DNA of 64,000 bases. Source: Akkermansiaceae bacterium UBA2367. GTDB lineage: Bacteria; Verrucomicrobiota; Verrucomicrobiia; Verrucomicrobiales; DEV007. Made by a program: the position numbers and the translations under genes. Numbering within the stretch: position 1 is the stretch's first letter; every line of letters begins with the position of its first letter. The notes beneath the pieces were generated by a model. It was not told the origin of the DNA. It did no database searches and saw only the letters and a list, made by a program, of their open reading frames with translations. Below, in pieces: positions 6,694 to 57,667 of the stretch. The stretch lies in NCBI GenBank assembly GCA_002344525.1, contig DDTJ01000073.1, positions 3,102 through 67,101 of the forward strand, written 5' to 3'.

Positions 6694-9029
6694 GACGCAC
6701 GTTTTTCGCCGCCGCAGCCGTCGGATTCGCCACTGCGGCGCTCTGCCAGGACGCCGCCCCGCTCCCCGGCACCGCGCCGCTCGACTGGACCGAGGAGGAC
6801 CCCTCCGTCCGCATCATGGACGGCGCCCATGCCTTCATCGACCGGAAGATCGCCGAGGCCGCGACGAAAACGCCCCGGCTCCCCCTCGACGAGGCGGCGC
6901 GGAAGGAATTCGTCGCGAACTCCCGCGAGGCCCTCGCGGGGAAGCTCGGCGTCGTCGAGGAACGGCTCCCCCCGTCTCTCGAATTCGTCTCTGTCGACCC
7001 TGTTAACTTCGAGGGCGAACCCGGCACGTCCCTCGTCGCGGAGGGCCCCGGCTTCCGCGTCCACCAGGTGCGCTGGCCCGTCCTGCCGGGATACACCGCC
7101 GAGGGGCTCTACGTGAACCCGATCCCGCTGGAGGACGGGGTCGCCTCCCCTCCCCTGATGGTCCTGATGCCCGACGCCGGCGAGACGCCCGAGGAGGTCC
7201 TCGGCCTGTCGCCCCGCCTCGAAGCGAAGGAGCGGATCGGTCTGCGCTTCGCGATGGCGGGCTTCCGCCTCCTCATCCCCGCCCCGCTCGACCGGGGGAC
7301 GTTTGGCGGTTTGTCAGGAAACGAGGAGGCCGTCCTCAAAACGAAGCAGAGCCACCGCGAATGGATCTACCGCCAAGCCTTCCAGATGGGGCGACATCCC
7401 CTCGGCTACGACGTGCAGACGATCCTCGCGGCGGTGGACTGGTTCGAAAGGGCCTTCCCCGGCGACCGGGTGGCAGCGGCCGGCTACGGCGAGGGAGGCC
7501 GCGCCGCCCTCTACGCCGCCGCCCTCGATCCCCGCGTCGGCCGCGCCTTCGTCAGCGGGGCCTTCGCCCCTCGCGACGCGGCTTGGGCCGAACCCATCGA
7601 CCGCAACATCTTCGGCCTCCTCCCCGACCACGGCGACGCCTCCGTCGCCGCCCTGATCGCCCCGCGCGTCCTCCTCGTCGAGCACACCCGCTTCCCCGAG
7701 GTGAAGGACCAGAAAGGTGATCTCACGACCCCGCCCTTCGCCGAGGTGGAGCGCGAATGGCAGAGCATCGCCACGGTGATGAACGCCTTCTCCGCGCCGC
7801 CCTCCTTTTTCCTGACGGAGGCCCACGACGGCGCTCGCGGCGACTACCCCTCGGTCGCGGGCTTCCTCCAAGCCATCGGTCGCGAACCGGACATCGAGCG
7901 CACCCCGCCCCTCGCCCTCGTCCTCGAAAAACGCCAGGCCTTCGATCCCGCGTCACGCCACCGACGCATCCTCCTCGGCTTGCAAGAGCACGTCCAAAGC
8001 CTCGTCGACGCCTCCGACCGGACGCGCGAGGAGTCCTTCCTCTTCGCCGCCGAACCGGGTCTGCGACCGGGAGGCTGGTCCGTGGAAAAGGAGCATCCCG
8101 TCCTCGGCCCGGCGAATTTCATCGTCCGCAGCGAGGAATGGCGGACCCGTTTCGAGGAGGAATTCCTCGGCGCCTTCGACGAGGAGCCGCTCCCGCCGAA
8201 TCCGCGCACGAGAAAACTGAAGGAGACGGAGGCCTGGACGATGTGGGAGGTCGGCCTCGACGTCCATCCCGGTTTCGAGACTTGGGGCGTGCTGCTCCTG
8301 CCGAAGGGGCTGAAACCCGGCGAGCGCCGCCCTGTCGTCGTCTGCCAGCACGGACGCAACGGAGTCCCCCGCGACTGCGTCGATGCGGGCAAGCCCGCCT
8401 ACAACGACTTCGCCGCCCGCCTCGCCGAGCGCGGCTACGTCACCTTCGCCCCGCACAACCTCTACCGGGGCGAGGACCGCTACCGCTGGCTCGACCGCAA
8501 GGCGAACCTCGTCGGCGGCACCCTCTTCACCTTCATCGTCTCCTCGCACCGCCAGTGCCTCGCTTGGCTGAAATCCCTGCCCGAAGTCGATCCGCAGCGC
8601 ATCGCCTTCTACGGGCTGAGCTACGGCGGCGAGACGGCGGTGCGCGTGCCGGCGGTGATCCCCGACTATTGCCTCTCGATCTGCTCGGGCGACTTCAACC
8701 AATGGACCCGCAAAGTCGCCGACCCCGATTTTCCCGGCAGCTTCATGAAGAGCGTCGAGTGGGAGATGCCCTACTGGAACCTCGGCAGCGCCTACGACTA
8801 CAGCGAGATGGCGGCCCTGATCTTTCCGCGCCCTTTCTTCGTCGAGCGCGGGCACCACGACCGCGTCTCCACCGACGCCTGGGTGGCGCACGAGTATGCG
8901 AAAGTGCGCCACCTCTACGCCCGCTTCGGCCTCGCCGACCGCACCGGGATCGAGTTCTTCCACGGCGGGCATTCGATCCACGGCGTGGGGACTTTCGAGT
9001 TTCTGGAGAGGCACCTCGGGAAGCCGTAG
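6690..9029 (+). CDS. Secreted double alpha/beta-hydrolase (dienelactone hydrolase-like)
   Basis: Signal peptide MRRTFFAAAAVG; GYGEGG and intact GLSYGG elbows; VVVCQHG; GHHD; start overlaps upstream stop. Confidence 0.8.
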   Translation: MRRTFFAAAAVGFATAALCQDAAPLPGTAPLDWTEEDPSVRIMDGAHAFIDRKIAEAATKTPRLPLDEAARKEFVANSREALAGKLGVVEERLPPSLEFVSVDPVNFEGEPGTSLVAEGPGFRVHQVRWPVLPGYTAEGLYVNPIPLEDGVASPPLMVLMPDAGETPEEVLGLSPRLEAKERIGLRFAMAGFRLLIPAPLDRGTFGGLSGNEEAVLKTKQSHREWIYRQAFQMGRHPLGYDVQTILAAVDWFERAFPGDRVAAAGYGEGGRAALYAAALDPRVGRAFVSGAFAPRDAAWAEPIDRNIFGLLPDHGDASVAALIAPRVLLVEHTRFPEVKDQKGDLTTPPFAEVEREWQSIATVMNAFSAPPSFFLTEAHDGARGDYPSVAGFLQAIGREPDIERTPPLALVLEKRQAFDPASRHRRILLGLQEHVQSLVDASDRTREESFLFAAEPGLRPGGWSVEKEHPVLGPANFIVRSEEWRTRFEEEFLGAFDEEPLPPNPRTRKLKETEAWTMWEVGLDVHPGFETWGVLLLPKGLKPGERRPVVVCQHGRNGVPRDCVDAGKPAYNDFAARLAERGYVTFAPHNLYRGEDRYRWLDRKANLVGGTLFTFIVSSHRQCLAWLKSLPEVDPQRIAFYGLSYGGETAVRVPAVIPDYCLSICSGDFNQWTRKVADPDFPGSFMKSVEWEMPYWNLGSAYDYSEMAALIFPRPFFVERGHHDRVSTDAWVAHEYAKVRHLYARFGLADRTGIEFFHGGHSIHGVGTFEFLERHLGKP

Positions 9030-9037
9030 GGTGGCCT

Positions 9038-9091
9038 ACGGAAGACGCGGAAGACGCGGAAGACGCGGAAGACGCGGAAGACACGGAAAAG
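9038..9091 (+). repeat. 9-bp tandem repeat (RCGGAAGAC x5 plus ACGGAAAAG)
   Basis: ACGGAAGAC GCGGAAGAC GCGGAAGAC GCGGAAGAC GCGGAAGAC ACGGAAAAG; CACGGAAAA (9082-9090) can pair with TTTTCCGTG (9123-9131). Confidence 0.95.
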
Positions 9092-9190
9092 GATTGGAGC
9101 GCTCAAACGGTTTTCTTTCCTGTTTTCCGTGAGGAGGTTTTTGCGCCAGTTCGTCTTGCCCTCCGTCTCCCGATCTGTCTATGATCGGGC

Positions 9191-10012
9191 ATGATTCGTC
9201 GATCTTGGAGAAAGGCGCTCGTTTTCGCGGCATTCGGCATCTTGCTCGCAACGACCGCCTGGGTCGTTGACCATCTCCAAAAACAGGCACGCCCCGATGA
9301 GGAGGTCGTCCTGTGGTCGGACCTCCGGAACAGACCGGATTCCGAAATCGGGATTCTCCAGAGCGACCTGAAACTGGCGGACCTCGACGAAGTGGTCTTC
9401 AAGGAGACGCCTTTCTCGGAATGCCTCGCACAGCTTCAGCGAATGATCGTGGACGAGCATCCCCACATCGCACCGATCACGTTCCAAATCGAGGAGGAGG
9501 TTTCGCCAACGTCTCCCATCACCCTCCATCTCCGCGAAGTGCCCGCGTTGGAGGCATTGCAATACCTTGGAGGGCTCAATTCCGCCAGATACGATCTGGA
9601 GCTTGGTCGGACCGTCGTTTTCGACGTCGGCTATCTGGACAGAGAACGGTTCCGGGAGGAAGGGTGGTTTCGTATTCCTCCCGGTTTTTTTGAGGGCATC
9701 GATCCATCAGCGGAAACAGCCAATGTGCGCGACCAACTGCAACGACTCGGCATCGCGCTCGAAAGCGGCGAAGTCTCCATCTACTACCCGAAACGGGGGC
9801 TGCTTTGGGCCTCGGCGGACGTGGACAATATGGAGGAGATCGACTTTCTTGCTTCCAGCATCTTCTACGATCCCGAACCGCCTTGGAACGACCGACTCAT
9901 GGAATGGCGGTATCGCCAGACCTCACGGCTCCGCCCCGCAGCCCCTGCGGCCCCCGTTCCTCCCGGTCCAGCCAGCGGCCAAGGCTTGCCCGACCCGTTT
10001 GGTGTCCCATAA
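9191..10012 (+). CDS. Membrane-anchored protein resembling N-terminal periplasmic domains of verrucomicrobial secretins, no barrel
   Basis: PITLHLREVPALEALQYL, FRIPPGFF, LQRLGIALESGEVSIYYPKRGLLW resemble STN/N3-type segments; Pro-rich DPFG tail. Confidence 0.6.
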   Translation: MIRRSWRKALVFAAFGILLATTAWVVDHLQKQARPDEEVVLWSDLRNRPDSEIGILQSDLKLADLDEVVFKETPFSECLAQLQRMIVDEHPHIAPITFQIEEEVSPTSPITLHLREVPALEALQYLGGLNSARYDLELGRTVVFDVGYLDRERFREEGWFRIPPGFFEGIDPSAETANVRDQLQRLGIALESGEVSIYYPKRGLLWASADVDNMEEIDFLASSIFYDPEPPWNDRLMEWRYRQTSRLRPAAPAAPVPPGPASGQGLPDPFGVP

Positions 10013-10124
10013 CGAAATTCCCCTTTCCGCGTCTTCCGTAGGCCCCCTTCCCCGTCCCTGTCCCCCCGCATTCACGTCCGTTTGCCCCGCGACGATCCGG
10101 GCCTTATCGTTCCTCCTCCCCCCG

Positions 10125-11342: not shown

Positions 11343-11354
11343 CCTCGGCCACAG
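11281..11354. repeat. BIME-like unit (family R2): GTAG REP-B plus inverted REP-A
   Basis: CTGTAGCCAGCCTCACTGAGGCCGG (11281-11305) is identical to the reverse complement of 63160-63184; CGACCGAGGTCAGTGACCTCGGCCACAG matches the reverse complement of REP-A at 63110/63212. Confidence 0.9.
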
Positions 11355-11646: not shown

Positions 11647-12192
11647 ATGAAATTGTATATTGGAAACCTGTCCTACGACACCTCTGAGGCTGAACTGCGT
11701 GAATTCCTCAGTCCCTTCGAACCCATCCTCGATCTGCATCTGCCGATCGACCGCGACAGCGGACGCCCGCGCGGCTTCGCCTTCGTGACGCTCTCCAGCC
11801 GCGATGCCGGCGAGGCAGCCATCGCCCAACTCGACGGCGCCGAACTCGGCGGTCGCAACCTGAAGGTACGGGAGGCCGAAGAACGCCGTGGTCCCGGAGG
11901 GGGCGGCGGAGGTGGCTACGGTGGCGGTGGGGGAGGCGGCGGACGCCCCCCGCGCGGCGGTGGCTACGGCGGAGGCGGGGGAGGCGGCGGCTACGAACGT
12001 CGCGGCGGTGGAGGTGGTGGTGGCGGCGGTCGCCATCGTGGAGGCGAGCGCGGCGACTACCGTGGCGAACGCGGCGACCGGGAATACCGGGGCGGTGGTG
12101 GTAGCGGCGGCGGCGGCCGGGAATACCGGGAGCCGCGCGGTGATCGCGACGACTACGGCGGCGGCGGTGGCAAACGCTATCGCAGCCTCTGA
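11647..12192 (+). CDS. RRM RNA-binding protein with Gly/Arg-rich tail
   Basis: RNP2 KLYIGNLSY, RNP1 RGFAFVTL, long GGGG/RGG tail. Confidence 0.93.
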   Translation: MKLYIGNLSYDTSEAELREFLSPFEPILDLHLPIDRDSGRPRGFAFVTLSSRDAGEAAIAQLDGAELGGRNLKVREAEERRGPGGGGGGGYGGGGGGGGRPPRGGGYGGGGGGGGYERRGGGGGGGGGRHRGGERGDYRGERGDREYRGGGGSGGGGREYREPRGDRDDYGGGGGKRYRSL

Positions 12193-12228
12193 TCCGGCCC
12201 CCCGGCCCGCCATCGCTTTGCTTTCTTC

Positions 12229-12261: not shown

Positions 12262-12286
12262 CTCCGTATTCCCCCCATTCCCTGAT

Positions 12287-14845: not shown

Positions 14846-14894
14846 TTCGGATTTCGAGCTTCGGATTTCGGATTTCGAGACTCGACTTTCGACT
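14846..14894 (+). repeat. Heptamer tandem repeat (TTCGGAT-type) x7, single arm
   Basis: TTCGGAT TTCGAGC TTCGGAT TTCGGAT TTCGAGA CTCGACT TTCGACT. Confidence 0.85.
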
Positions 14895-14940
14895 TTCCCC
14901 GCGCCGGAGCCTCTCTACAGTGGAGGGCAGCTTCCCCCCG

Positions 14941-17637
14941 ATGCACTTCGCCGCGCCCCAATTCCTCTTCCTGCTGCCGATCTGGCTGCTCTTGGGCTGG
15001 CGCTTCCGCCGTCTCGAACTGTGGAGGCCGCTCCGCGCCGTAGTGCTGCTGCTCCTGACCCTGCTCCTCTGCGACCCGCGCGTCTCCCTAAAATCGGGCG
15101 GCATCGACCTCTGGGTGCTCCTCGACCGATCCCGCTCCGCCCAAGACCTCGTCGATGCGGGCGAGCTGGAGTGGCGCACCCTGCTCGAACGCACCCGTCC
15201 CAGCGAACGGCACGGGCTCCACTTCCTCGACTACGCCGGCGAGGTCATCCCCTTGGGCCGAGGCGAAGGCGCGATCTACTCCGGCGACCGCGACCAGACC
15301 CGCACCGCCCTCGCCCTCCACGAGGCCCTCGCCCGCATGGACCCGAAGCGGCACAACCGCGTCCTCCTCTTCTCCGACGGCTACAGCACCGAACCCCTCT
15401 CCGGAGCTGCCGCAAAGCTGATCGAAGCGGGCGCGCCCCTCGACTACCGCCTCCTCCGCTCGCCCGAATCCGTCGATTACCGCGTCGCCGCCGTGGAGAT
15501 GCCTGAACGGGTCCAGTTCGGCGAACCCTTCATCGTCGAGGCGCGGCTCGCGGGCACAGCGGACGGCACCGTGCCCATCGAAATCTTCCGTGGGGAAAGC
15601 CGCCTTTACGCCGGGGAGATCGCGGTGAAAGGCGGCGTCGGGCGCTTCCGCTTCTCCGACCGCATCGCCGAGCCGGGCGGACACCGCTACGCCGTCTCCA
15701 TCGCCCCCGCCAACGACGCCCATCCGGGAAACAACCGACGCGAACGCTGGATCGAGATCACGGGCGGCCCGCGCCTCCTCCTCGTCACCGCCTACCAGGA
15801 CGACCCCCTCGCACCGGTCCTGAGGGCGCAGGGCTTCGACGTCGTCGTCGTGGAAAACCCGCTCTCCCTGAACCCCGGAGCCCTCACCGGAGCCAGAGCG
15901 GTGATCCTCAACAACGTCCCCGCCTACGAGCTGCCGGGCGATTTCATCGGGGCGCTGCCCTTTTTCGTCAGCGACCAAGGCGGCGGACTCCTCATGGTCG
16001 GCGGCCATCGCAGCTTCGGATCGGGCGGCTACTACGAGTCGGCCATCGACCCGCTCCTGCCCGTCTCGATGGAGTTGAAAAGCGAGCACCGCAAGCTCGG
16101 CGTGGCCATGGCCATCGTCATGGACCGCTCCGGCTCCATGGGCATGACCACCTCTAGCGGACACACCAAAATGCAGCTCGCCAACGAAGGCGCGGCCCGG
16201 GCCGTCGAGCTTCTCGGCAGCATGGACGCCGTCACCGTCTTCGCCGTAGACAGCCAAGCCCACCAAGTCGCCCCCCTCCTCAACGTCGGCCAGGGCCGGG
16301 GCGAACTCATCAGCCGCATCCGCCGCATCGAATCCATGGGCGGCGGCATCTTCGTCTACACCGGGATGAAGGCGGCTTGGGACGTGCTCAAGAATGCGCC
16401 CCTCGGGCAGCGGCACCTCATCCTCTTCAGCGACGCATCCGACTCCGAGGAGCCCGGCGACTACATTGCCCTGATCGAGGAGATGCGCGCCGCCGGCACC
16501 ACCGTCAGCGTCATCGGCCTGGGCGGTCGCGGCGATCCCGACGCCGGGCTGCTCGAGGACATCGCGAAGCGAGGCGGAGGCCGTGTCTTCTTCACCGAGA
16601 TCCCCGGCGAACTGCCCAACATCTTCGCGCAGGAGACCGTGACCGTGGCCCGCTCCTCCTTCATCGAGGACGCGACCGGGGCGAAATCGACAGGCCGCTG
16701 GCACGAACTCGCCCGCCGCGAAGCCGAATGGCTCCCCGAAGTCGACGGCTACAACCTCAGCTACCTGCGCGAAGGCGACCAAGCCGCCCTGATCTCCGCC
16801 GACACCTACGCCGCCCCCCTCGTCGCCTTCGGACGGCGCGGCATCGGACGCACCGCCGCCGTCTCCTTCCCCCTCGGCGGCGGCTTCTCCGAGCGCACCC
16901 GGAACTGGGCGCAATACGGCGACTTCGTCCAGACCCTCGCCCGCTGGCTCATGGGTGACGAAGTGCCGCCCGGACTCGGTCTGCGGCACCGCCTCGTCGG
17001 GTCCGAGTGGACCTTCGACCTCTTCTACGAAGCCGATCCCTGGGAGGCCCGCCTCGCCACCGCCGCGCCGCGCGTCGTCGTGCAGAGCGGCTACCGCGAC
17101 GGGAGACGCCGCGAGTTGACTTGGGAACGCCTCGCCCCCGGCCATTACTCCGTCTCCACCTCCCTCGAAGCGGGCGCTCCCGTCCGCGCCGCCCTCCAGG
17201 TCGCGGGTTCCGCCATCCCCCTCGGCCCCGTCGTCGTCGGCTCCGACAGCGAATGGCAGTTCGACGAGGAGCGCGTCGCCGAACTGCGCGAGACCGCCCG
17301 CGCCAGCGGCGGCGGCGAACTCCTCGACCTCGGCAAAGCCTGGCGTCAGCCCCCCGCGCCGAGCGAGGAGCCGATCCGCACGCCCCTCCTCGTCGCGATC
17401 CTCGCCCTCTTCCTCCTCGACGCCCTCGTCACGCGGACCGGCTGGAAACTGCCGCGTTTCCTCCCCTCCTTTGTCTTCGCGAAACGCGCCGCCCGCCCGG
17501 TTCCGGTGAAAGCGCAAGCTACGCCCGAAACCGCGTCCTCCCCTGCCCCGCCCGCGCCCCCGACACCCGAACCCCCGCCGCCAGCGGACGGCGATTCCCG
17601 GAAAAGCCGCTTCCAACGGGCGAAAAAGCGGCTTTGA
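14941..17637 (+). CDS. Membrane VWA-domain protein with GATase1-like domain
   Basis: BatA-like start MHFAAPQFLFLLP; DRSRS and MIDAS-type DRSGSM motifs; LLMVGGHRSFGSGGY; C-terminal TM and Pro-rich tail. Confidence 0.8.
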   Translation: MHFAAPQFLFLLPIWLLLGWRFRRLELWRPLRAVVLLLLTLLLCDPRVSLKSGGIDLWVLLDRSRSAQDLVDAGELEWRTLLERTRPSERHGLHFLDYAGEVIPLGRGEGAIYSGDRDQTRTALALHEALARMDPKRHNRVLLFSDGYSTEPLSGAAAKLIEAGAPLDYRLLRSPESVDYRVAAVEMPERVQFGEPFIVEARLAGTADGTVPIEIFRGESRLYAGEIAVKGGVGRFRFSDRIAEPGGHRYAVSIAPANDAHPGNNRRERWIEITGGPRLLLVTAYQDDPLAPVLRAQGFDVVVVENPLSLNPGALTGARAVILNNVPAYELPGDFIGALPFFVSDQGGGLLMVGGHRSFGSGGYYESAIDPLLPVSMELKSEHRKLGVAMAIVMDRSGSMGMTTSSGHTKMQLANEGAARAVELLGSMDAVTVFAVDSQAHQVAPLLNVGQGRGELISRIRRIESMGGGIFVYTGMKAAWDVLKNAPLGQRHLILFSDASDSEEPGDYIALIEEMRAAGTTVSVIGLGGRGDPDAGLLEDIAKRGGGRVFFTEIPGELPNIFAQETVTVARSSFIEDATGAKSTGRWHELARREAEWLPEVDGYNLSYLREGDQAALISADTYAAPLVAFGRRGIGRTAAVSFPLGGGFSERTRNWAQYGDFVQTLARWLMGDEVPPGLGLRHRLVGSEWTFDLFYEADPWEARLATAAPRVVVQSGYRDGRRRELTWERLAPGHYSVSTSLEAGAPVRAALQVAGSAIPLGPVVVGSDSEWQFDEERVAELRETARASGGGELLDLGKAWRQPPAPSEEPIRTPLLVAILALFLLDALVTRTGWKLPRFLPSFVFAKRAARPVPVKAQATPETASSPAPPAPPTPEPPPPADGDSRKSRFQRAKKRL

Positions 17638-17739
17638 TGCCTGTGGCCAACCCTATTGCTTGAACGGAGGACAAATTTCGCGCTTTTCAACTTGCATGCG
17701 GCCCGGATCGGTTTTTGTTCAAAAATACACTGATTTGAA

Positions 17740-19053
17740 ATGTCGCGCCGACCTGTAGGAATCGATCTGTTCGCCGGAGCCGGGGGGATGAGCCTCGGAT
17801 TCGAGCAGGCCGGATTCGACGTGAAGGCCGCCGTCGAGATCGATCCCGTGCATTGCTCGGTCCACGCCTTCAACTTCCCCGAATGCGCAGTCATCCCTGC
17901 CTCCGTCTCCCGGATCACCGGAGGCGACCTCGAAACCGCCATCGGCGGAGGTCCTGTCGATGTCGTCTTCGGCGGAGCGCCCTGCCAAGGCTTCTCGCTC
18001 ATCGGAAAACGCATCCTCGACGACCCGAGGAACGCGCTGGTCAGGGATTTCGTCCGCATCGTCGCCGAAGTCGATGCGAGCTGGTTCGTCTTCGAGAACG
18101 TGAAAGGCCTCACCCTCGGCCACCATCGCAAGTTCCTCGACGAACTGCACGAGGAATTCGACCGGGCGGGCTACCGTGTCCAGAATCCTTGGCACGTCCT
18201 GAACGCGGCGGACTACGGCGTACCGCAGAACCGGGAGCGCCTGATCCTCCTCGGGGCGAAGAAGGGCCTTCCCCTGCCACGATATCCCGAGCCAACTCAT
18301 TCGCGGTCCAGCGCAGAATTGATGGGATACCGCGCCACCACCTGCCGCGAGGCCCTCGGCGACCTCCCCGACGCCGACGCCTTCGCGAGCTTGGAGAGCG
18401 GCGACTCCGTCGCGACGCGGGCTTGGGGCGAACCCAGCGCCTACGCCACGGAAATGCGATGCCTCGACGAGGCCTCGTGGCATTTTGGATACCGCCGCCT
18501 CTGGGATCCGGGGATTCTCACCTCAAGCATGCGCACCCATCACACGGACATCTCGAAACGGCGCTTCCTTGAAACCGCACCGGGCAGCGTCGAGCCGATC
18601 TCCCGCTTCTTCCGTCTGCCGCCGGACGGCCTCTCCAACACCCTCCGGGCGGGAACGGACGGAGCGCGCGGAGCCTTCACCAGCCCCCGCCCGATCCACT
18701 ATCGCCACGCCCGCTGCATCACCGTGCGGGAGATGGCCCGCCTCCACGGCTTCCCCGACTGGTTCCGTCTGCACGTCACCAAATGGCACGGTGCCCGGCA
18801 GGTGGGCAACGCGGTCCCCCCGCCGCTGGCCCGAGCGGTCGCCACCGCCCTGATGGAGGCCATGGGGTTCCGACCAACGCGCCCGCGACGCCGGCTCGGA
18901 CTCGGGGACCCCGCCCTGCTCGCCTTCGACCTCTCCCAAGCCTCGGAGTATTGGGAAGTCGAGAAGCCGAATTCAAAGCGCGACCGCAAGAGCGGCGCAC
19001 GCAAACGCAAGCAGGAGGAGATCGAGGCAACCCGGCTGTCCGCCGGATTCTGA
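17740..19053 (+). CDS. dcm: DNA (cytosine-5)-methyltransferase
   Basis: Motif I DLFAGAGG, IV GAPCQGFS, VI ENV, VIII QNRER, X QVGNAVPP. Confidence 0.96.
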   Translation: MSRRPVGIDLFAGAGGMSLGFEQAGFDVKAAVEIDPVHCSVHAFNFPECAVIPASVSRITGGDLETAIGGGPVDVVFGGAPCQGFSLIGKRILDDPRNALVRDFVRIVAEVDASWFVFENVKGLTLGHHRKFLDELHEEFDRAGYRVQNPWHVLNAADYGVPQNRERLILLGAKKGLPLPRYPEPTHSRSSAELMGYRATTCREALGDLPDADAFASLESGDSVATRAWGEPSAYATEMRCLDEASWHFGYRRLWDPGILTSSMRTHHTDISKRRFLETAPGSVEPISRFFRLPPDGLSNTLRAGTDGARGAFTSPRPIHYRHARCITVREMARLHGFPDWFRLHVTKWHGARQVGNAVPPPLARAVATALMEAMGFRPTRPRRRLGLGDPALLAFDLSQASEYWEVEKPNSKRDRKSGARKRKQEEIEATRLSAGF

Positions 19054-19059
19054 ACCCCC

Positions 19060-19854
19060 ATGCAAGTTCCCAAAGAAAACCGCTACCAAGCCCTCTTGGA
19101 GAAAATCTTCTTCGACCGCTTTTCGCAAGGCGACGAAGAAGTCGTCTTCGCCCGCGAGGACATCGAGGCGGCGGCGGAAACCCTCGGCATCCGGCTGCCC
19201 AAGAACCTCGGGGACGTGATCTATTCGGTGCGCTACCGGACCGCCTTGCCCGAGTCCATCCTCAAAGAGCAGAGCGGAGGCAGGGAATGGGGCATCGAGG
19301 GCGTCGGACGGGCGCGATACGCCTTCCGCCTCCGCAAGGTCAACCGGATCGTCCCGAATCCCGCCCTGCTGGCGATCAAGATTCCCGACGCGACTCCCCA
19401 GGTGATCGCCGCCAACGCCCTCTCGGACGAGCAGGCGCTTCTGGCGAAAGTGCGCTACAACCGCCTCATCGACCTTTTCCTCGGACTGACCTGCTACTCG
19501 CTCCAGAACCACCTCCGCACCACGGTGAAATCGATCGGGCAGATCGAGATAGACGAGCTGTATGTGGGACTCAACCGGAAGGGCGCTCAGTTCATCATCC
19601 CCGTGCAGGCCAAAGGCGGGAGCGACCGCCTCGGCATCGTCCAGACCGCGCAGGACATCCAATGCTGCGCCGAGAAGTTCCCCGATCTCGTCTGCCGCGC
19701 GATCTCGACGCAGTTCATCTCGGACGACCTCATCGCCCTGTTCGAACTCGCCATCGACGGAGACGACTTGAAAGTGGTCGAAGAGCGGCACTACCTCCTC
19801 GTGTCGGCCAACGCAATCAGCGGGGAGGAGCTACGGCGCTACGCGAACAGTTGA
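19060..19854 (+). CDS. Putative type II restriction endonuclease (PD-(D/E)xK fold)
   Basis: 6 bp after the methyltransferase; IEIDELYVG...IIPVQAKGG resembles D...QxK catalytic motif. Confidence 0.65.
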   Translation: MQVPKENRYQALLEKIFFDRFSQGDEEVVFAREDIEAAAETLGIRLPKNLGDVIYSVRYRTALPESILKEQSGGREWGIEGVGRARYAFRLRKVNRIVPNPALLAIKIPDATPQVIAANALSDEQALLAKVRYNRLIDLFLGLTCYSLQNHLRTTVKSIGQIEIDELYVGLNRKGAQFIIPVQAKGGSDRLGIVQTAQDIQCCAEKFPDLVCRAISTQFISDDLIALFELAIDGDDLKVVEERHYLLVSANAISGEELRRYANS

Positions 19855-20020
19855 CCTGCGTTTCCCGCCAAGTCTTGCGACCGCAGCCCGAAGCCGATTC
19901 GGCTTGTCTCTACAATCCTCCGCAAACCGAGTCCCACGCGGGATCCTTTCCGTGAAATCCCATAAATAACCTTGTCGTTTCGACAGGGCGCCCGCTACAA
20001 TCCCCTCCGAAACTCCTGCC

Positions 20021-21581: not shown

Positions 21582-22352
21582 ATGCTCCAAGACTACCTCC
21601 GATTCGCCGAGAACACCGCCCGCGAGGCCGGGGCTTTGACCTTGGAGTATTTCCTCACCGACGCGGCGCGGCCCGAGTTCAAGGCCGACGACACGCCCGT
21701 GACTGTGGCCGACCGGCGGGCCGAGGAGCTGATCCGCCGCCACATCGAGGAAACCTTTCCCGACCACGAGATCGTGGGCGAGGAGTTCGGCGCGTCGTCG
21801 GGCGGGTCGGAGTTCCGCTGGATCATCGACCCGATCGACGGAACGAAGTCCTTCACCCACGGCGTGCCGCTCTACGGCGTTCTCCTCGCCTTGGAGATCG
21901 AGGGGAAAGTCGAGGTCGGCTGCGCCCACTTCCCCGCCCTGAACGAAACGATCTCCGCCGCGACCGGGCACGGGGCTTGGTGGAACGGCAAGCCCGCCCG
22001 CGTCTCGGAGGTCTCCGACCTGAGCCGCGCGGTCTGCGCCCACATCGACACGGCTTATTTCGGGAAGAACGGCAAGGGCGAGCCGTGGAAGCGTTTGCAA
22101 CAAGCGGTCTACTACAACGCCGGCTGGTGCGACGCCTACGGCTACCTCCTCGTCGCGACGGGACGGGCCGAGATCATGGTCGACCCGGTCATGGCGGTGT
22201 GGGATTGCGGGCCCTTCCCGCCGATCTTGCGGGAAGCGGGAGGATATTTCGGGGACTGGTCCGGCAACGAGGGCCGCATCGACGGCGGCGAAGCCCTCGC
22301 GACGAACGCGGCGCTGCGGGATCAAGTGGTGGGCTTGTTGAAGGGAGCCTGA
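21582..22352 (+). CDS. hisN: Histidinol-phosphatase (inositol monophosphatase family)
   Basis: KADDTPVTVADR, GEEFG, WIIDPIDGTKSF, WDCGPF. Confidence 0.85.
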   Translation: MLQDYLRFAENTAREAGALTLEYFLTDAARPEFKADDTPVTVADRRAEELIRRHIEETFPDHEIVGEEFGASSGGSEFRWIIDPIDGTKSFTHGVPLYGVLLALEIEGKVEVGCAHFPALNETISAATGHGAWWNGKPARVSEVSDLSRAVCAHIDTAYFGKNGKGEPWKRLQQAVYYNAGWCDAYGYLLVATGRAEIMVDPVMAVWDCGPFPPILREAGGYFGDWSGNEGRIDGGEALATNAALRDQVVGLLKGA

Positions 22353-22366
22353 AAAGCGTTGGCGAC

Positions 22367-23248
22367 ATGGACACGAACGCACGCAAAGGGACGGCAACCC
22401 CGCTTCGCGCCTCTTTCCACCTCTCCCTGCTCCTCGCCATCTTCCCTGCCGTCGCAGCCGAGCCTCCTGAAAACTTCCGCCGAGAGAATCTCGTCGCTTG
22501 GTGCGTCGCCCCTTTCGACGCGAAAAAGCGCACCCCGCACGATCGGGCCGCGATGCTGTCCCGCCTCGGCCTGAAGCGTGTCGCCTACGACTGGCGCGAG
22601 GAGCATGTGCCCGAGTTCGAGATCGAGTTCCTCGCCTACCGCGAGCACGGCATCGAGCTCTTCGCCTTCTGGAAGAACCATCCCGAGGCCAAGGCGATCT
22701 TCGAACAGCTCGATCTGAAACCCCAAATCTGGGTGCCCCTGCAAACCGGGAAAGGACTCTCGAACCAGGAGAAGGTCGCCAACGCGGTCGAGTCCCTCGT
22801 TCCCCTCGCCCGCGAGACGGCGGAGCGGGGCTTCGCCCTCGGGCTCTACAACCAGGGCGGCTGGGGCGGACTGCCCGACAATCTCGCGGCGGTGAGCGCG
22901 GGGCTGCGCGAGAGGGGGTTCGAGCAGGTCGGCATCGCCTACACCTTCCACAACGCCCATCCCCGCATCGGCACTTTCGCCGACGATCTGAGGAAGATGC
23001 GGCCCCATCTCCTCTGCGTCTCCCTCAACGGCATGGCCGACCCGGCGAAGAGCGACATTTCGAAAAGCGAGAATCGCATCAAGCCTCTTGGCACCGGCGA
23101 GCACGAGGCGGCGATGATCGCCGAGCTCATCGAGCAAGGCTACGACGGACCCGTCGCCATCCTCGGCCATGTCGCGACCCGCGATGCCGAGGAGGTGCTG
23201 CGGGAGAATATCGAGGGGCTGGAGAGGATTGTTGGGGGTCTTCCTTGA
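22367..23248 (+). CDS. Sugar phosphate isomerase/epimerase-like TIM barrel, secreted
   Basis: AWCVAPFDAKKRTP, LYNQGGWGG, LCVSLNGM, GYDGPVAILGH. Confidence 0.7.
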   Translation: MDTNARKGTATPLRASFHLSLLLAIFPAVAAEPPENFRRENLVAWCVAPFDAKKRTPHDRAAMLSRLGLKRVAYDWREEHVPEFEIEFLAYREHGIELFAFWKNHPEAKAIFEQLDLKPQIWVPLQTGKGLSNQEKVANAVESLVPLARETAERGFALGLYNQGGWGGLPDNLAAVSAGLRERGFEQVGIAYTFHNAHPRIGTFADDLRKMRPHLLCVSLNGMADPAKSDISKSENRIKPLGTGEHEAAMIAELIEQGYDGPVAILGHVATRDAEEVLRENIEGLERIVGGLP

Positions 23249-23252
23249 TTCC

Positions 23253-23346
23253 ACTCCTTACTCCTTACTCCTTACTCTTACCTCTTACTCCTCGTCGTTG
23301 GCCAACCGTTCTTCGGGGAGTAAGAGGTAAGAGTAAGGAGTAGGAG
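23253..23346. repeat. TACTCCT/TACTCT tandem-repeat inverted-arm hairpin
   Basis: 26-bp perfect inverted repeat 23266-23291 / 23317-23342 with 25-nt loop, built of ACTCCTT/ACTCTT units. Confidence 0.92.
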
Positions 23347-25463: not shown

Positions 25464-25620
25464 GAAATCCGAAGCCCGAAATCCGGACGCTGAACCGCTA
25501 CGCGGGACCGCTGATTGGCGCTGATCCGCGCTGATTTTTTTCCAAGCCCAGAAAAATCAGCGGCAATCAGCGAAGATCATCGGTCGCCGGAGGCCATTCG
25601 GATTTCGGGTTTCGGATTTT
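25464..25620. repeat. Nested hairpin: heptamer outer arms enclosing decamer inner arms
   Basis: Outer 25464-25485 / 25599-25620 (20/22 complementary, TTCGGAT family); inner CGCTGATnnn x3 (25509-25538) versus AATCAGCG-type units (25552-25582). Confidence 0.88.
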
Positions 25621-44228: not shown

Positions 44229-44284
44229 TTGGGCCGGCAAATGCCCGTCAGGGCTTATGCCCACTTCGTTACATTGAGGTTTGG

Positions 44285-44452
44285 ACCACGGATGGCCACC
44301 AATGGACACGAATTTTCTTGATCTTTGAGGTGATTGCAAATCACCCGCTGCCAGACCGGATTCGTGAGCATTCGCGGAGATTTTCGGCCATTCGCGTTTG
44401 AAAAAGATGAGAAACGCGAATTTTCGCGAATGGAACGCGAATCGCCGCAAAT
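44285..44452. repeat. Decamer tandem-repeat inverted-arm cluster (ACACGAAT/ACGCGAAT type)
   Basis: ACCACGGATG GCCACCAATG GACACGAATT; ATTCGTGAGC ATTCGCGGAG ATTTTCGGCC ATTCGCGTT; AACGCGAATT TTCGCGAATG GAACGCGAAT; central GGTGATT-GCA-AATCACC hairpin. Confidence 0.8.
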
Positions 44453-44552
44453 GGAAGAAGGTCCTGCAATTGACTCCTCTATCTATGTAATGAATCTGAC
44501 GACGACCTCGGCGGGAGGTTCGCAATCGTCCAGATCTTTTCGGGATTTCGTA

Positions 44553-50918: not shown

Positions 50919-50944
50919 GTCGTCGGCGGGGTTCGAACTCCGCG

Positions 50945-52633: not shown

Positions 52634-52716
52634 TGCGCCACCCTGCGCCGAGACTAGGACGCGCCGGGACGATTTCAAGCTGGAAAAGAGGCGGGCCGAT
52701 GCGCTATCGTCGGGTC

Positions 52717-53616: not shown

Positions 53617-53625
53617 CTCCAACCC

Positions 53626-54402
53626 TTACGCCCCCTTGGCCGCCCCGTCCTTCGGCGGCCACGTCTTCGGATCGAGGTGGGAAAGCACCGAATACACCCC
53701 CTCCTTCTCCACAGGCAAGAGGGTCTCGTCCTTTTCCAGCATTGTCCGGAGGATCTCGACGAGGCGGGGATGGCGCTCGGCGTTCGCCAAGAGCGCCTCG
53801 TGCGCGAAATGGGGCAGGTGCTTGTAGAGAGGCACATATCCATCCGGCACATCGACGTCCTCCGGCTTGTCCGGGGCGTCACGGAAGCGGAAGGCGATGA
53901 CGATGCGGCGGATCGCGGTCTCGGACCCGGTGGCGTAGTAGAAGCCCCAGAGCATGTCCATGGTCCCTTGCTTGTCGAGAGGCATCTCCAATATCTTCCG
54001 GGTCTCGCGCTTCTGCTCGTCGTAGGCCGACCCGAAGGCGTCCCGCAAGATCGTGTCGGCCTCCTCCGTCCGCGAGAAGAGCATCGCGGTGTGGAGCACC
54101 TGCATCTGCTTGGGATCGAGGCCGGAGAGCGCTTCATACCACTCCTTCAGCCGCTCCCGGTTCTGCCGGATCACTTGGCTGGCGAAAGCGATCAGGGCGG
54201 GCTTGGCATGATCGTTGTCGAGCGTGCCATCGCCGGCCCAATCCTTCATCTGCTCGACGAAGCGCTCCGGATCGGGATTTTCGTAGTAATGTTCGAGCCA
54301 GTCCTTCTCCCCCGACGCGGGACCGGGCGGGGTCTCCTGCGGAATCGCGATGGACGGCAGGATGGCGAGGACGAGCAGGAGATGGGGAAAAGAGAGGCGC
54401 AT
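53626..54402 (-). CDS. Secreted hypothetical protein
   Basis: Signal peptide MRLSFPHLLLVLAILPSIA; helical body. Confidence 0.65.
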   Translation of the reverse strand: MRLSFPHLLLVLAILPSIAIPQETPPGPASGEKDWLEHYYENPDPERFVEQMKDWAGDGTLDNDHAKPALIAFASQVIRQNRERLKEWYEALSGLDPKQMQVLHTAMLFSRTEEADTILRDAFGSAYDEQKRETRKILEMPLDKQGTMDMLWGFYYATGSETAIRRIVIAFRFRDAPDKPEDVDVPDGYVPLYKHLPHFAHEALLANAERHPRLVEILRTMLEKDETLLPVEKEGVYSVLSHLDPKTWPPKDGAAKGA

Positions 54403-54500
54403 TGCGATGAGAGAAGCACAGACGGGGACGCTTTGGCGAGCCGAAATGTTCATTTTCTGCTTGAATCCCTGGCAGAAAGCGTAAATTTCCCACCCCCACC

Positions 54501-54770
54501 ATGGCAAAACAAAGTTGGATCACCCGGAACCAGCGCAAAGCGCGCACCGTAGCAAAATACGCCAAGCTTCGCGAGAAGCTGAAGGCGGAGAAGGACTACG
54601 ACGGTCTCACCCTGCTGCCGCGTGATGCCAGCCCGACCCGGGTGGTGAACCGCTGCGAAGTTACCGGTCGCCGTCGCGGCTACCTGCGTCGCTTCAGGAT
54701 GTCTCGGATCACCTTCCGCGAAATGGCCTCCCACGGTCTCATCCCCGGCGTGACCAAGTCCAGTTGGTAA
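54501..54770 (+). CDS. rpsN: 30S ribosomal protein S14, 89-aa zinc-free type
   Basis: [48 protein letters not shown]; single Cys. Confidence 0.97.
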
Positions 54771-54800
54771 GCGAGTCGCCCTCGTGACCGAAACGAAGAG

Positions 54801-54827
54801 GCGGAGCCGTCAGGTTCCGCTTTTTTT
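54801..54827 (+). terminator. Intrinsic terminator of rpsN
   Basis: GCGGAGCC-GTCA-GGTTCCGC then T7. Confidence 0.8.
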
Positions 54828-54844
54828 GTCCCTTGCTCTCGGGC

Positions 54845-54879
54845 TTCGAACTCCGGATTTTGGGTTTCGGATTTGAAAG
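54845..54879 (+). repeat. Degenerate heptamer tandem repeat (TTCGGAT-type) x5, single arm
   Basis: TTCGAAC TCCGGAT TTTGGGT TTCGGAT TTGAAAG. Confidence 0.6.
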
Positions 54880-54905
54880 TCCCCGCCGACAGCGGATGTT
54901 TCCCC

Positions 54906-55160
54906 ATGCCCCTCTACGAATACATCACAACGGACTCGGAGAAAGGCTGCCGCATCTGCCGCCAAGGTTTCGAACTGCGTCGCCCGCTCGACCGCCCGCC
55001 GCTGGATCTCTGCCCCCTTTGCCGGAATCCGGTGAAAAAGCTCCTCTCGAAGGGCGTCACCTCGCCCAAAATCGCGAAACCCCTCTCCGTCACCGACGCG
55101 AAGAAAGCGGGCTTCACCGTCTTGGAACGCCGCGACCAAGGCACCTACGAGAAGCTTTGA
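54906..55160 (+). CDS. FmdB family zinc-ribbon protein
   Basis: MPLYEY, CRIC...FE, CPLC. Confidence 0.85.
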   Translation: MPLYEYITTDSEKGCRICRQGFELRRPLDRPPLDLCPLCRNPVKKLLSKGVTSPKIAKPLSVTDAKKAGFTVLERRDQGTYEKL

Positions 55161-55164
55161 GCTT

Positions 55165-55257
55165 GGAGGGGGGCTTTCCAAGTCCCCACCGCTGGTTTTG
55201 CGTCGGTTGGCTCCGTCCCAAAGCTTCCGCCCACGGGGACTTGGAAAGTCCCCCTCC
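55165..55257. repeat. REPIN-like inverted pair of GGAG-tagged palindromes (family R3)
   Basis: GGAGGGGGGCTTTCCAAGTCCCC (55165-55187) versus reverse complement of 55235-55257 GGAGGGGGACTTTCCAAGTCCCC (22/23). Confidence 0.85.
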
Positions 55258-55285
55258 CAGTAGAGATCCCCTCGAAAGCCGCACG

Positions 55286-55314
55286 AAAAAAGGCCGGGCG
55301 ACGCCCGGCCTTTT
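55286..55314. terminator. Bidirectional intrinsic terminator between FmdB gene and fusA
   Basis: AAAAAA-GGCCGGGC-GAC-GCCCGGCC-TTTT. Confidence 0.85.
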
Positions 55315-55345
55315 CCGAATTGAGTCCGTTGCGTGAAACTTCCGC

Positions 55346-57442
55346 TCAGCGGGCCGCGTCGGCTGCCGCCTTGGCGGCGGCGGCTTTGGCGATGATGTCG
55401 TCGGAGATGTTCCTCGGACAGGGCGCGTAATGCGAGAACTCCATGGAGAACTGCCCGCGACCGGAGGTCATGGTGCGGAGGTCGCCGATGTAGCCGAACA
55501 TTTCGCTGAGCGGGGCATCGGCCTTCACGCGCACCCCGGTCGGGCCGGAGTCCTGCGATTTGATCATGCCGCGGCGGCGGTTGAGGTCGCCGATAACGTC
55601 GCCGACGTGGTTATCGGGGGTAAAGACGTCGATCTTCATGATCGGCTCCAGAATCTGTGGAGCGCACTTGGGAATGGTCTGGCGGTAGCCGGCCTTCGCC
55701 GCCACCTCGAAGGCGATGGCCGAGGAGTCCACCGCGTGGAAACCACCGTCTAGCAGGGTCACCTTGAAGTCGAGCAGGGGATAGCCCGCGAGGGTGCCCT
55801 TCTCCTTCGAGAGGCGGAAGCCCTTCTCGATGGCGGGCCAGAATTCCTTGGGCACGTTGCCGCCGACGACCTTCGATTCGAAGATGAATCCGGTGCCGGG
55901 CTCGCCGGGCTCGATCATGTAGTCGATCTTGCCATACTGGCCGGAGCCGCCGGACTGCTTCTTGTGGGTGTAGGAGTCGTTCGTCGCCTTGGTGATGGTC
56001 TCGCGGTAGGCGACCTGCGGCGCACCGACCTCGACCTCGACCTTGTGGGTGCGCTTGAGGATGTCCACCTTGATGTCGAGGTGCAGTTCGCCCATGCCCT
56101 TGAGGATGGTCTCGCCGGTCTCCTGGTCGGTCTCGACGTGGAAGGAGGGGTCCTCGCGCACCATCTTCGCGATGGCTTCGCCGAGCTTCTCCGAGGCGCT
56201 CTTGTCCTTCGGCGCGACGGCGATGGAGATGACCGGATCGGGGAAGACCATGGGCTCAAGCGTCGCCGGGTCCTTCGGATCGCAGAGGGTGTGTCCGGTC
56301 TGCACGTTCTTCAGCCCGACGAGGGCAACGATGTCGCCCGCCGAGGCTCCGTCGAGCTCCTGGCGCGAGTTCGCGTGCATCTCGACGATGCGGCCGACGC
56401 GCTCGGTCTTTCCGGTGAAGGTGTTCAGCAGGGTGTCGCCCTTGCTCAGCTTGCCGGAGTAGACGCGGGTGAAGGTCAGGGCGCCATACTGGTCGTCCAT
56501 GATCTTGAAGGCGAGGGCGCGCAGCGGGGCGTCGGGGGTGACAACGGCGAACTTGCCGGTCTCGTTGCCTTCGAGGTCGACCTCGGGCTGGGGGTTCACC
56601 TCGGTGGGGCTGGGGAGGTAGTCCACGACGGCGTCGAGAACGAGCTGCATGCCCTTGTTCTTGAAGGCCGAACCGCAGAAAGTGGGGAAGAATTTCAGGG
56701 CAATGGTGCCTTTGCGGATGCACTTCTTGAGCGTCTCGGCATCGGGCTCGTTGCCTTCGAGGTAGGCTTCCATGACCTCGTCGTCCTGCTCCACGGCGGT
56801 CTCGACGAGCTCGGCACGGTATTGCTCGACCTTGTCCTTCATGTCGGCGGGGATCTCCTCGATCTTGTAGTTCTCCGGCTGGCCGGAGTCGTCCCAGACC
56901 CACGCCTCGCGGGTGATCAGGTTGACGACGCCCTTGAACTGGTCTTCCTCGCCGATGGGCAGGACCATGACGAGCGGCTTGGCCCCGAGCACTTTCTTGA
57001 TCTGCTCGACGACGCGGTAGAAGTCCGCGCCGATGCGGTCGAGCTTGTTCACGAAGATGATGCGGGAGACCTTGGAGTCGTTGGCGTAGCGCCAGTTCGT
57101 CTCGGACTGGGGCTCGACGCCGCCGGAGCCGCAGAAGACACCGATGCCGCCGTCGAGCACTTTCAGGGAGCGATAGACCTCGATGGTGAAATCGACGTGG
57201 CCGGGAGTGTCGATCACGTTGAAGCGGTGGTCGTTCCAGAAGCAGGTGGTGGCGGCGGACTGGATCGTGATGCCGCGCTCGGCCTCCTGCTCCATGAAGT
57301 CCATGGTCGATTCGCCGTCGTGGACCTCGCCCAGCTTGTGGATTTTGCCCGTGAGCTTGAGAATGCGCTCCGTGGTCGTGGTCTTGCCGGCGTCGACGTG
57401 CGCGAAAATGCCGATGTTTCTGTATTTGGAGAGGTCTGTCAT
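55346..57442 (-). CDS. fusA: Elongation factor G (stand-alone copy)
   Basis: [50 protein letters not shown]. Confidence 0.97.
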
Positions 57443-57560
57443 CTACTGGAGGGTTGGGATCGAACCGAATTTTTGGAGCGGGTAGTGTTGTGCAAAGCGG
57501 CCCGAAGGCAAGCGGGAATTAGTTGGGGCCTGTGGAGGCGGCGGCCCCGCCGCTTCCACT

Positions 57561-57667
57561 CTCCTGCTCATACTCCCTACTCCTTACTCTTACTCCTCCC
57601 TGCTCTAGCCCAAAATCGGGGAGTAAGAGTAAGAGTAAGAGTAAGGAGTAGGGAGTATGAGCAGGAG
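57561..57667. repeat. TACTC-family tandem-repeat inverted-arm hairpin
   Basis: 35-bp perfect inverted repeat 57561-57595 / 57633-57667, with extra GAGTAA units in the right arm. Confidence 0.93.

Follow-up and report, generated by a model that had tools for sequence, protein, structure and literature searches.

Tandem-repeat loci in the window

The stretch of DNA analysed here (the window) covers 64,000 nt of the genome of Akkermansiaceae bacterium UBA2367 (C27:3102-67101), and seven loci within it carry arrays of short tandem units, several of them arranged as the two inverted arms of a hairpin. The genome, labelled G000, is a 4.38-Mb draft of 110 contigs with 65% GC; C-numbers denote its contigs, and G002 denotes its nearest relative, whose assembly is 73% complete. 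Tandem arrays were detected with Tandem Repeats Finder (TRF), inverted arms with an inverted-repeat scan, and folding was expressed as a z-score against dinucleotide shuffles. A first-pass annotation of the window had reported tandem units at seven places, and all seven are present, the array at 54845 being sub-threshold for TRF but visible in the sequence. Its further description of most loci as two inverted arms fits four of the seven (23.3, 25.5, 44.4 and 57.6 kb) and fails for the solo arms at 14.85 and 54.85 kb and for the locus at 9.03 kb, because the fold z-scores identify only those four as true two-arm hairpins. Every copy in the window sits between protein-coding genes, none lies in helix 25 or 45 of 23S ribosomal RNA (rRNA), and an Rfam scan of the window matched no rRNA or other RNA family.

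The two clearest hairpins are gene-less and have 6/7-mer arms. At 57561-57667, upstream of the gene for elongation factor G, perfect 35-nt arms of the TACTCC class (57561-57595 and 57633-57667, 100% complementary; TRF arrays at 57571-57589 and 57620-57657) enclose a 37-nt loop and fold with z = -12.1. At 23253-23346, between convergent genes, 29-nt arms of the TACTCC(T) class (23266-23294 and 23314-23342, 97% complementary; TRF arrays of ACTCCTT and GAGTAA at 23253-23292 and 23318-23346) enclose a loop of about 19-25 nt (z = -10.2). The reading frame of a minus-strand PfkB-family kinase gene overlaps this hairpin by about 60 nt, across its loop and right arm (23285-23346). The Pfam match stops at residue 296 of the 327-residue product, so that the present C terminus and stop codon appear to come from the element.

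The element at 25465-25619, between the stop of a metX-like gene and the start of a Dabb gene, is composite. Its outer heptamer arms of the GAAATCC class (25465-25485 and 25599-25619; 21 nt, 95% complementary; TTCGGAT array at 25597-25619) surround asymmetric linkers and an inner decamer hairpin of CGCTGATnnn units (approximately 25506-25585; array at 25509-25536), and the whole folds with z = -7.2. Near 44.4 kb, a gene-less hairpin with decamer arms of the ATTCGCGnnn class (44355-44455; period-21 array of ACGCGAAT type at 44413-44456) lies between convergent genes, and the region 44.3-44.5 kb folds with z = -2.8. A solo left arm of another 10-mer class (GACCACGGATGGCCACCAATGGACACGAAT) occupies 44283-44330, and its whole hairpin form lies inside a GAAATCC-armed element at C71:162210-162391. 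Solo arms of the GAAATCC class make up two further loci: an array of TTCGGAT and TTCGAGC units upstream of a gene with a von Willebrand factor A domain (14846-14897, period 7/21), with no partner arm and no hairpin (z = +1.07), and a degenerate heptamer arm just past a terminator-like hairpin lying downstream of the gene for ribosomal protein S14 (54843-54880, z = +0.1). The seventh locus, at 9.03 kb, is described with its surroundings below.

A dispersed hairpin population expanded in one lineage

A genome-wide hairpin scan, set to a minimum arm length of 14 nt and a maximum loop of 250 nt, recovers 916 inverted repeats in G000, 426 of them with arms of at least 16 nt, and about 144 of these 426 have periodic arms. 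The hairpins are frequent sites of contig ends and NN scaffold gaps (for example C20:3, C10:12918, C22:35761, C28:81-116, C66:14065 and C20:89074), and because palindromes break or collapse short-read assemblies, hairpin copy numbers are lower bounds. The recurring arm classes are TACTC (at least 57), GAAATCC (20), ATTCGCG/CGCGAAT (19), CGCTGAT (11) and ACGGAA/TTCCGT (11), with GTTGAGA, CATCTGCG, GCACAAAA, GGGTCAT and others besides. At separate loci the variant units follow an identical irregular order and the loop cores agree (such as gaaatcggaNgtcNctcgacgttcgga in TACTC loops), which identifies the hairpins as dispersed copies and not as independent products of local slippage.

The hairpin expansion is confined to one lineage, G000 and its nearest relative. 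The arm 23-mer TTCGGATTTCGRRYTTCGGATTT has 117 occurrences in G000 and 125 in G002; 22 further genomes of the same genus have between 0 and 10 each, and the other families sampled have none. A reversed control pattern of the 23-mer has no match in G000 or in any other genome but one, an unrelated member of the order with three, so that 117 occurrences against none cannot be put down to chance.

On approximate gene calls, 129 of the 135 periodic-arm hairpins that could be placed (96%) are intergenic, with 69% between tandem, 20% between convergent and 11% between divergent genes; divergent spacers make up 22% of intergenic length and are thus depleted. The arms, 25-37 bp long, have a GC content of 0.50 against 0.65 for the genome, and a T-rich tail follows only 2 of the 144. 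Nesting is common: of the 175 hairpins whose loop measures 40 nt or more, 27 hold another hairpin. The annotation had read the 25.5-kb locus as a second repeat hairpin nested within the first, and the nesting is real; it does not, however, record a local landing event, as the composite of about 150 nt (GAAATCC arms, linkers, inner CGCTGAT hairpin) is present in at least 12 copies in G000 and at least 30 in G002. More generally, the proposal of a single superfamily in empty, nested and gene-filled states is borne out genome-wide, where all three states occur.

Two small gene families lie between the arms

We then took up the content between arms across the genome. Some long, gene-filled pairs exist, as the annotation had anticipated, but hairpin-oriented (L-to-R) pairs are nearly all short: neighbouring arms lie less than 150 nt apart in 50 of 51 TACTC, 20 of 21 CGCTGAT and 52 of 56 ATTCGCG pairs. 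At separations of 300-3000 nt, L-to-R pairs are no commoner than everted or direct pairs, both in the arm-array census and in a k-mer version of it, and there is therefore no general gene-filled state. Nor is the cargo arbitrary, as had been supposed. Apart from one bracket around orf273 in the window, the long-range pairs inspected hold two small gene families: GxxExxY proteins (TIGR04256/PF13366, PD-(D/E)XK fold) and four-helix bundle proteins (TIGR02436/PF05635, the 23S rRNA intervening-sequence/S23p/Avd family).

Searches of the genome with hidden Markov models (HMMs) place every intact member of both families inside such arms. Pfam HMMs were needed here, tblastn with single seed proteins having missed most four-helix bundle genes. 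Of four GxxExxY matches, three are intact and the fourth is a short fragment with no arms evident beside it, and one more truncated remnant came from the long-range arm pairs; the four-helix bundle family has five clear genes and a sub-threshold fragment at a contig end. All three intact GxxExxY genes, the remnant on C39 and all five four-helix bundle genes lie between inverted tandem-repeat arms. The intact GxxExxY genes have arms of the classes ATTCGCG (C39:76539), GCACAAAAR (C41:21572) and ACGGAAT (C66:24042, as two whole hairpins), and the remnant (C39, near 55000) has ACGGAA arms. The four-helix bundle genes have arms of the classes GTTGAGA (C71:126508), GGAGCTA (C41:14813), GTAAAAG (C28:43774), GGGTCAY (C34:59) and TACTC (C101:10600, again as two whole hairpins).

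Three of the window elements are cognates of gene-bearing copies. The 23.3-kb arm is identical at 34 of 35 positions to the hairpins flanking the four-helix bundle gene C101:10585-11019, the 44.36-kb arm at about 36 of 44 to the arms around the intact GxxExxY gene C39:76453-76934, and the 9.03-kb head at 28 of 32 to the arm beside the GxxExxY remnant at C39:54895. With a PF05635-type open reading frame (ORF) present at C101 between arms of the 23.3-kb type, the copies in the window are gene-less relatives of such elements.

Arm period follows the gene family across the phylum

The association between arms and genes extends beyond this genome. In a sample of 121 genomes of the phylum, with a flanking inverted repeat counted at a score of at least 14 and shifted windows as controls, such repeats flank 24 of 30 GxxExxY loci (controls, 1 of 58) and 19 of 26 four-helix bundle loci (controls, 0 of 52). 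The arms at GxxExxY loci have periods mostly of 9, with some of 8 and 10, whereas among the 19 flanked four-helix bundle loci the period is 7 in 14 and 6 in 3. A period of 7 or less thus marks 17 of 19 four-helix bundle loci but only 1 of 24 GxxExxY loci (Fisher p = 7e-9). By this separation, the 6/7-mer classes of the window (TACTCC, TTCGGAT) are of the four-helix bundle type and its 9/10-mer classes (CGGAAGACG, CGCTGATnnn, ATTCGCGnnn) of the GxxExxY type. A full-text literature search found no paper linking such arms to either family outside rRNA.

Gain, loss and concerted change between relatives

Comparison with G002 provides one clean pair of filled and empty alleles, a polymorphism that the first-pass annotation had proposed looking for. 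At G002:C406, a block of about 1.1 kb consists of a hairpin, a GxxExxY-domain ORF, an arm and a hairpin, with units of 12 nt (GTAGGAAAATTA), and the sequences on either side match G000 C95:13953-15319 and 15321-16116 at 94.6% identity. The corresponding empty site (C95:15319/15321) holds two genes separated by a 7-nt spacer, TCCCGCC, and no arms. Gene and arms were therefore gained or lost there as one block, and in this case the arms came in with the gene; they were not, as had been suggested, a landing pad waiting for it.

Other sites document both turnover and persistence. The 9.03-kb element and the 54.85-kb solo arm (a 36-nt block) are missing from the orthologous spacers of G002, while orthologous sites are occupied in both genomes by the 23.3-kb hairpin, the 57.6-kb hairpin and a composite on C46. 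At 23.3 kb the G002 site has identical inner arms around an inverted loop, and the inter-arm segment is inverted between the genomes at both occupied orthologous sites compared (23.3 kb and C46). At 57.6 kb the arm sequences differ between the genomes, yet each is self-complementary. Loops thus flip and arms evolve in concert, changes that template switching or arm-to-arm recombination could yield. We also considered the flipped loops as invertons or phase switches and rejected this reading: the loops are only 12-40 nt long (110 in the composite), and no invertase gene lies nearby. For 10 of 13 element loci in G002, the flanking sequences fall on separate contigs of G000, a pattern we leave uninterpreted because both assemblies tend to break or mis-join at repeats.

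Gene content also differs between the two genomes at sites of another kind. A two-gene segment of 2.5 kb (approximately 17.46-19.99 kb in the window) is missing from G002, where 190 nt separate the orthologous flanks, and no such repeat arms occur at either end (17460-19990). Its first gene, which begins MSRRPVGIDLFAGAGGMSLG, resembles a DNA cytosine methyltransferase, and the segment is accordingly probably a restriction-modification islet. Conversely, G002:C246:1959-4412 holds about 2.4 kb of extra sequence between orthologues of two adjacent window genes (22346-22430).

A possibly split element around orf273

The locus at 9.0-10.0 kb is the one place in the window where arms bracket a gene. 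The left part of a 9-mer element of the ACGGAA class (9030-9131) starts 1 nt past the stop of a hydrolase gene (6690-9029) and comprises the terminus GGCCTACGGAAGACG from 9033, 5.6 copies of CGGAAGACG (9039-9088) and an inner hairpin CACGGAAAAGGA...TCCTGTTTTCCGTG (9082-9131). The right terminus, TTCCGCGTCTTCCGTAGGCC (10013-10047), abuts the stop of orf273 (9191-10012). The inverted-repeat scan pairs 9030-9052 with 10025-10047 (23 nt, 96% complementary, 972 nt apart), and within these arms 20 nt (9033-9052 and 10025-10044) are exact complements. On its own, 9028-9140 folds into the small inner hairpin only (z = -2.4), with five perfect CGGAAGACG units unpaired.

The bracketed gene deviates from its surroundings, with a GC content of 0.59 and a third-position GC content of 0.675 (neighbours, 0.69 and 0.89). 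Its product has an N-terminal membrane anchor or signal-like segment, belongs to no Pfam family, gives a weak secretin-N/Amuc_1098-like NCBIfam match (E = 0.005) and diverges fast, being 56% identical to the G002 copy where neighbouring genes are 86-91% identical. In G002 an orf273 homologue directly follows the same hydrolase gene after a 44-nt spacer without arms, and none of the homologues from five other genomes is flanked by an inverted repeat (scores 7-9), so that the bracket is peculiar to G000. The annotation had taken this gene for cargo of the arms; its arm-free relatives show that it is not habitually so, and we likewise rejected it as a cassette gene, as it has neither a Pfam assignment nor homologues with flanking inverted repeats.

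The same two termini occur as one whole 130-nt element elsewhere in G002 (L037:1325-1455, z = -5.8), directly upstream of the gene for 3-dehydroquinate (DHQ) synthase, and the right terminus in G000 is orthologous to the right arm of that element, shorter by one 9-nt unit. A compact hairpin with the same terminus is present at C27:2155-2204. Gene order near DHQ synthase differs on both sides between the two genomes, which, like the compact hairpin, tells against simple cargo, and scans of genome and metagenome contigs returned no closer relative for the 9-10 kb locus. Structurally, G000 looks like the 130-nt element split by about 890 nt. That a single element was split by captured DNA is a possibility to which we lend somewhat less than even credence; any scenario involves at least two events, and the arrangement is a one-off, not a class.

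Other repeats in the window and genome

Several repeats lie apart from the tandem-repeat hairpins. A classical repetitive extragenic palindromic (REP) dimer tagged with GTAG occupies 4124-4201 (GTAGAGAAATTTGTGAGAATTTCTCC ... GGAGAAATTCTCACGAATTTCTCTAC; 26-nt arms, 96% complementary). Its class brackets a Y1 transposase gene of the REP-associated tyrosine transposase (RAYT) type at C100:7545-8105 and is nested in CGCTGAT hairpins at C38:55895 and C45:24557. A palindromic element at 55162-55260 (CTTGGAGGGGGGCTTTCCAAGTCCCC ... GGGGACTTGGAAAGTCCCCCTCCCAG; 26-nt arms, 92% complementary, 47-nt loop) is not made of tandem repeats and has a second copy at C51:174174-174256. The genome also holds a conventional MITE (a miniature transposable element with inverted repeats), about 230 nt long, with 34-nt terminal inverted repeats (GAGACTGTTGAAAAACCCCGYRATGAAAAA), a conserved 162-nt interior and CTAG or TTAA flanks, in at least six copies (C5:77857, C30:6999, C51:112364, C56:6682, C63:9720 and C70:2583). 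Within a reading frame of the window, a GGC-rich 48-nt tandem repeat (11895-12026, 2.2-2.5 copies) encodes a glycine-rich segment and is unrelated to the hairpins.

Proposed hairpin cassettes resembling rRNA intervening sequences

We interpret the seven loci as gene-less members of a genome-wide population of hairpin cassettes resembling the intervening sequences (IVSs) of 23S rRNA, present in the window as whole hairpins, one composite and solo or decayed arms, and we estimate the probability of this interpretation at roughly two in three. In a cassette, two arrays of short tandem units stand inverted on either side of a loop, which in most copies measures 10-110 nt. In the few full copies the loop holds one small gene, of the four-helix bundle family where the units are 6-7 nt long and of the GxxExxY family where they are 8-10 nt long.

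The rRNA case suggests how such cassettes might persist. Most copies lie downstream of a gene and, once transcribed, their arms would pair into a stem of 25-40 bp. RNase III may then cut the stem, as it does in the S23p-bearing intervening sequence of 23S rRNA, insulating the host genes and doing little harm. The encoded protein may recognize the periodic units of its own arms and help to maintain or copy them, which would explain why period follows gene family. Gene-less copies would then be non-autonomous derivatives, maintained in trans or surviving as relics, much as REP doublets forming hairpins (REPINs) depend on a RAYT gene.

Several observations weigh against this interpretation. No cassette gene (no PF05635 or TIGR02436 ORF) lies inside the window, the matches being on other contigs only, and for the abundant GAAATCC and CGCTGAT classes the assembly, which covers 92% of the genome, contains no gene-bearing copy. 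Gene-less TACTC hairpins begin with the pyrimidine-rich arm, whereas most four-helix bundle cassettes begin with the purine-rich one, and the C101 gene is flanked by two whole hairpins. No target-site duplication appears in the flanks of about 60 copies or at the junctions at 9.03 kb, 54.85 kb and G002:C406. In the assemblies no excision product or transposition event is seen, and a single clean pair of filled and empty sites is known. G000 and G002 are draft assemblies of the metagenome-assembled type, prone to break at these very repeats, and the home-made gene calls, modelled on GC content per codon position, are approximate and missed both the S14 gene and orf273. All evidence is assembled DNA, and RNase III processing and binding of the proteins to their arms are carried over by analogy from the rRNA case.

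The frequency and variety of nesting recall a different history, in which the hairpins are independent selfish palindromes and the GxxExxY and four-helix bundle genes home secondarily into loops or beside hairpins, the arms serving as landing pads for these genes and for other hairpins only. GAAATCC arms surround CGCTGAT or ACGGATG hairpins, ACGGAA surrounds ATTCGCG, CATCTGCG surrounds CGCGAAT, and CGCTGAT surrounds the GTAG REP. Moreover, every gene-bearing copy's arm class also has gene-less copies, and at three loci (C101, C66 and G002:C406) a gene lies between near-identical hairpins in direct repeat, as integration of a circle at a resident hairpin would give. The lone clean empty site, however, contains no hairpin at all, no empty-hairpin allele was found at the site of a filled one, and the commonest nested form is a multicopy unit copied whole, which counts as one nesting event. 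We regard secondary homing as unlikely on this evidence, and less likely still the annotation's own model, in which the arms are general recombination or insertion targets analogous to attC that take up arbitrary cassettes by means of an enzyme encoded elsewhere. The 9.0-10.0 kb bracket does speak for general landing pads: perfect 20-nt termini enclose exactly one gene of deviant composition, and the same termini lie contiguous in the element upstream of DHQ synthase in G002. Yet the census of arm pairs has no corresponding excess, the hydrolase gene and orf273 are adjacent and arm-free in G002, the same terminus also forms the compact hairpin at C27:2155, and the 2.5-kb gene island came or went without arms. 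The likeness to integron cassettes fails as well, there being no cassette array and no conserved attC-like core.

Two further explanations dispense with the cassette genes altogether, and we consider both very improbable. Were the hairpins REP or REPIN elements mobilized by RAYT (Y1 HUH) transposases, one would point to the five Y1_Tnp matches in the genome, to elements that are palindromic, intergenic and without target duplication, and to the GTAG in ACGGAA-class termini and the repeated GTAG/GTAA in TACTC arms. But none of the five RAYT-like genes is bracketed by the tandem-repeat classes, whose arms co-occur instead with GxxExxY and four-helix bundle genes. Ordinary palindromes belonging to other classes directly flank those on C100, C95 and C31 (C100:7545-8105, for instance, lies between copies of GTAGAGAAGTTCGTGAGAACTTC), the one on C62 has another ordinary palindrome nearby and a TACTC hairpin about 900 nt upstream, and the one on C86 has no hairpin nearby. 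Intrinsic termination or local slippage without mobility, which the annotation had named as the outcome that would undo its model, would suit the prevalence of positions downstream of at least one gene and the depletion of divergent spacers, and unit number does vary by slippage, as in the 5.6-fold array at 9039-9088 and the one 9-nt unit that separates G000 from G002. It does not account for arms that are AT-richer than the genome and almost never followed by a T-rich tail, for identical irregular unit orders and loop cores at many loci, for the gain or loss of a whole block, for expansion in one lineage or for the systematic link to two gene families.

The IVS-like cassette interpretation can be carried further, tentatively and with less confidence than we place in the interpretation itself. 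Tandem-repeat hairpins may have dedicated protein partners that recognize their sequence, drawn from the four-helix bundle and GxxExxY families, with unit length specifying the protein. Gene and arms together would form a transposase-free replicator of the REPIN-RAYT kind that seeds gene-less populations, nests in loops and occasionally captures or splits host DNA, perhaps at 9.0-10.0 kb; the 23S IVS, the short tandemly repeated repetitive (STRR) sequences of cyanobacteria and the arrays of Xanthomonas would then be states of one system. The genome in any case links two features of bacterial DNA that have long gone unexplained, tandem arrays of short heptamers and 23S rRNA intervening sequences, in that hundreds of intergenic hairpins have arms in common with the few gene-bearing cassettes. 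If the proteins act on their own arms, the cassettes would be a selfish system both widespread and mechanistically new, and a function could be assigned to two large protein families now called 'hypothetical'. In practical terms, the hairpins break short-read assemblies and often lie where close relatives differ in gene order.

Comparison with known systems

The closest known counterpart is the 23S IVS, found in helix 45 of Coxiella burnetii and in Leptospira. In C. burnetii an S23p ORF occupies the loop of a long stem that contains tandem GACAGAT heptamers in strain-variable number and is excised by RNase III, and the element has long been suggested to be selfish and once mobile (Warrier et al. 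2016, PMC4990558). An inverted-repeat stem, tandem heptamers and a small PF05635 gene in the loop are common to both, IVSs too are seen as selfish, and ORF-less versions of them are known as well. The elements described here differ in lying between protein-coding genes, in being mostly gene-less, in numbering hundreds and in nesting in one another, and they are known from DNA alone; a second, unrelated family, GxxExxY, uses the same design with units of 8-10 nt.

For landing pads and nesting in loops, the nearest precedent is provided by IS1397 and ISKpn1, insertion sequences reported to insert into the loops of REP (palindromic unit) sequences, so that a palindromic repeat is the specific insertion target. 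These are full insertion sequences with a transposase, none of which is involved here, and the clean empty site is free of hairpins. Integron attC sites and cassettes resemble the present elements in combining imperfect hairpins with single promoterless genes, a likeness strengthened by the hairpin-gene-hairpin order at three loci, but here the cargo is restricted to two small families and the arms are tandem repeats. The elements are singly dispersed and the three hairpin-gene-hairpin loci isolated, with no cassette array, attI or adjacent integrase at the elements, although a genome-wide search for integron integrases was not run. A parent of the MITE type, with the same ends and a transposase, was not found; the gene-bearing copies encode GxxExxY or four-helix bundle proteins, neither a known transposase.

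REPIN-RAYT systems and the related REP sequences and bacterial interspersed mosaic elements (Bertels & Rainey 2011, PMC3116915; Di Nocera et al. 2013, PMC3733652) also form lineage-specific populations of short intergenic palindromes without target duplication, in which each class appears tied to one or a few copies of a small gene bracketed by the same repeat. In the present case the associated genes are not Y1 transposases, and the arms are tandem arrays of 6-10-nt units instead of a single GTAG-tagged palindrome. On the tag itself the sequences point both ways: the termini of the ACGGAA class end in ...TTCCGTAGGCC and GAGTAG/GAGTAA is found in TACTC arms, but an arm consists of a tandem array and is not a self-contained palindrome. 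Intergenic tandem heptamers themselves are familiar from the STRR sequences of heterocystous cyanobacteria and from Xanthomonas, where GGGAATC heptamers form 70-75 pairs of arrays in convergent orientation, near an upstream ORF and with the potential to form stem-loops (Rehm et al. 2015, PMC4692102). Papers on such heptamer DNA discuss G-quadruplexes or give no function, and name no gene family, whereas the hairpins described here comprise several unit classes, 9-10-mers among them, and are associated with two gene families.

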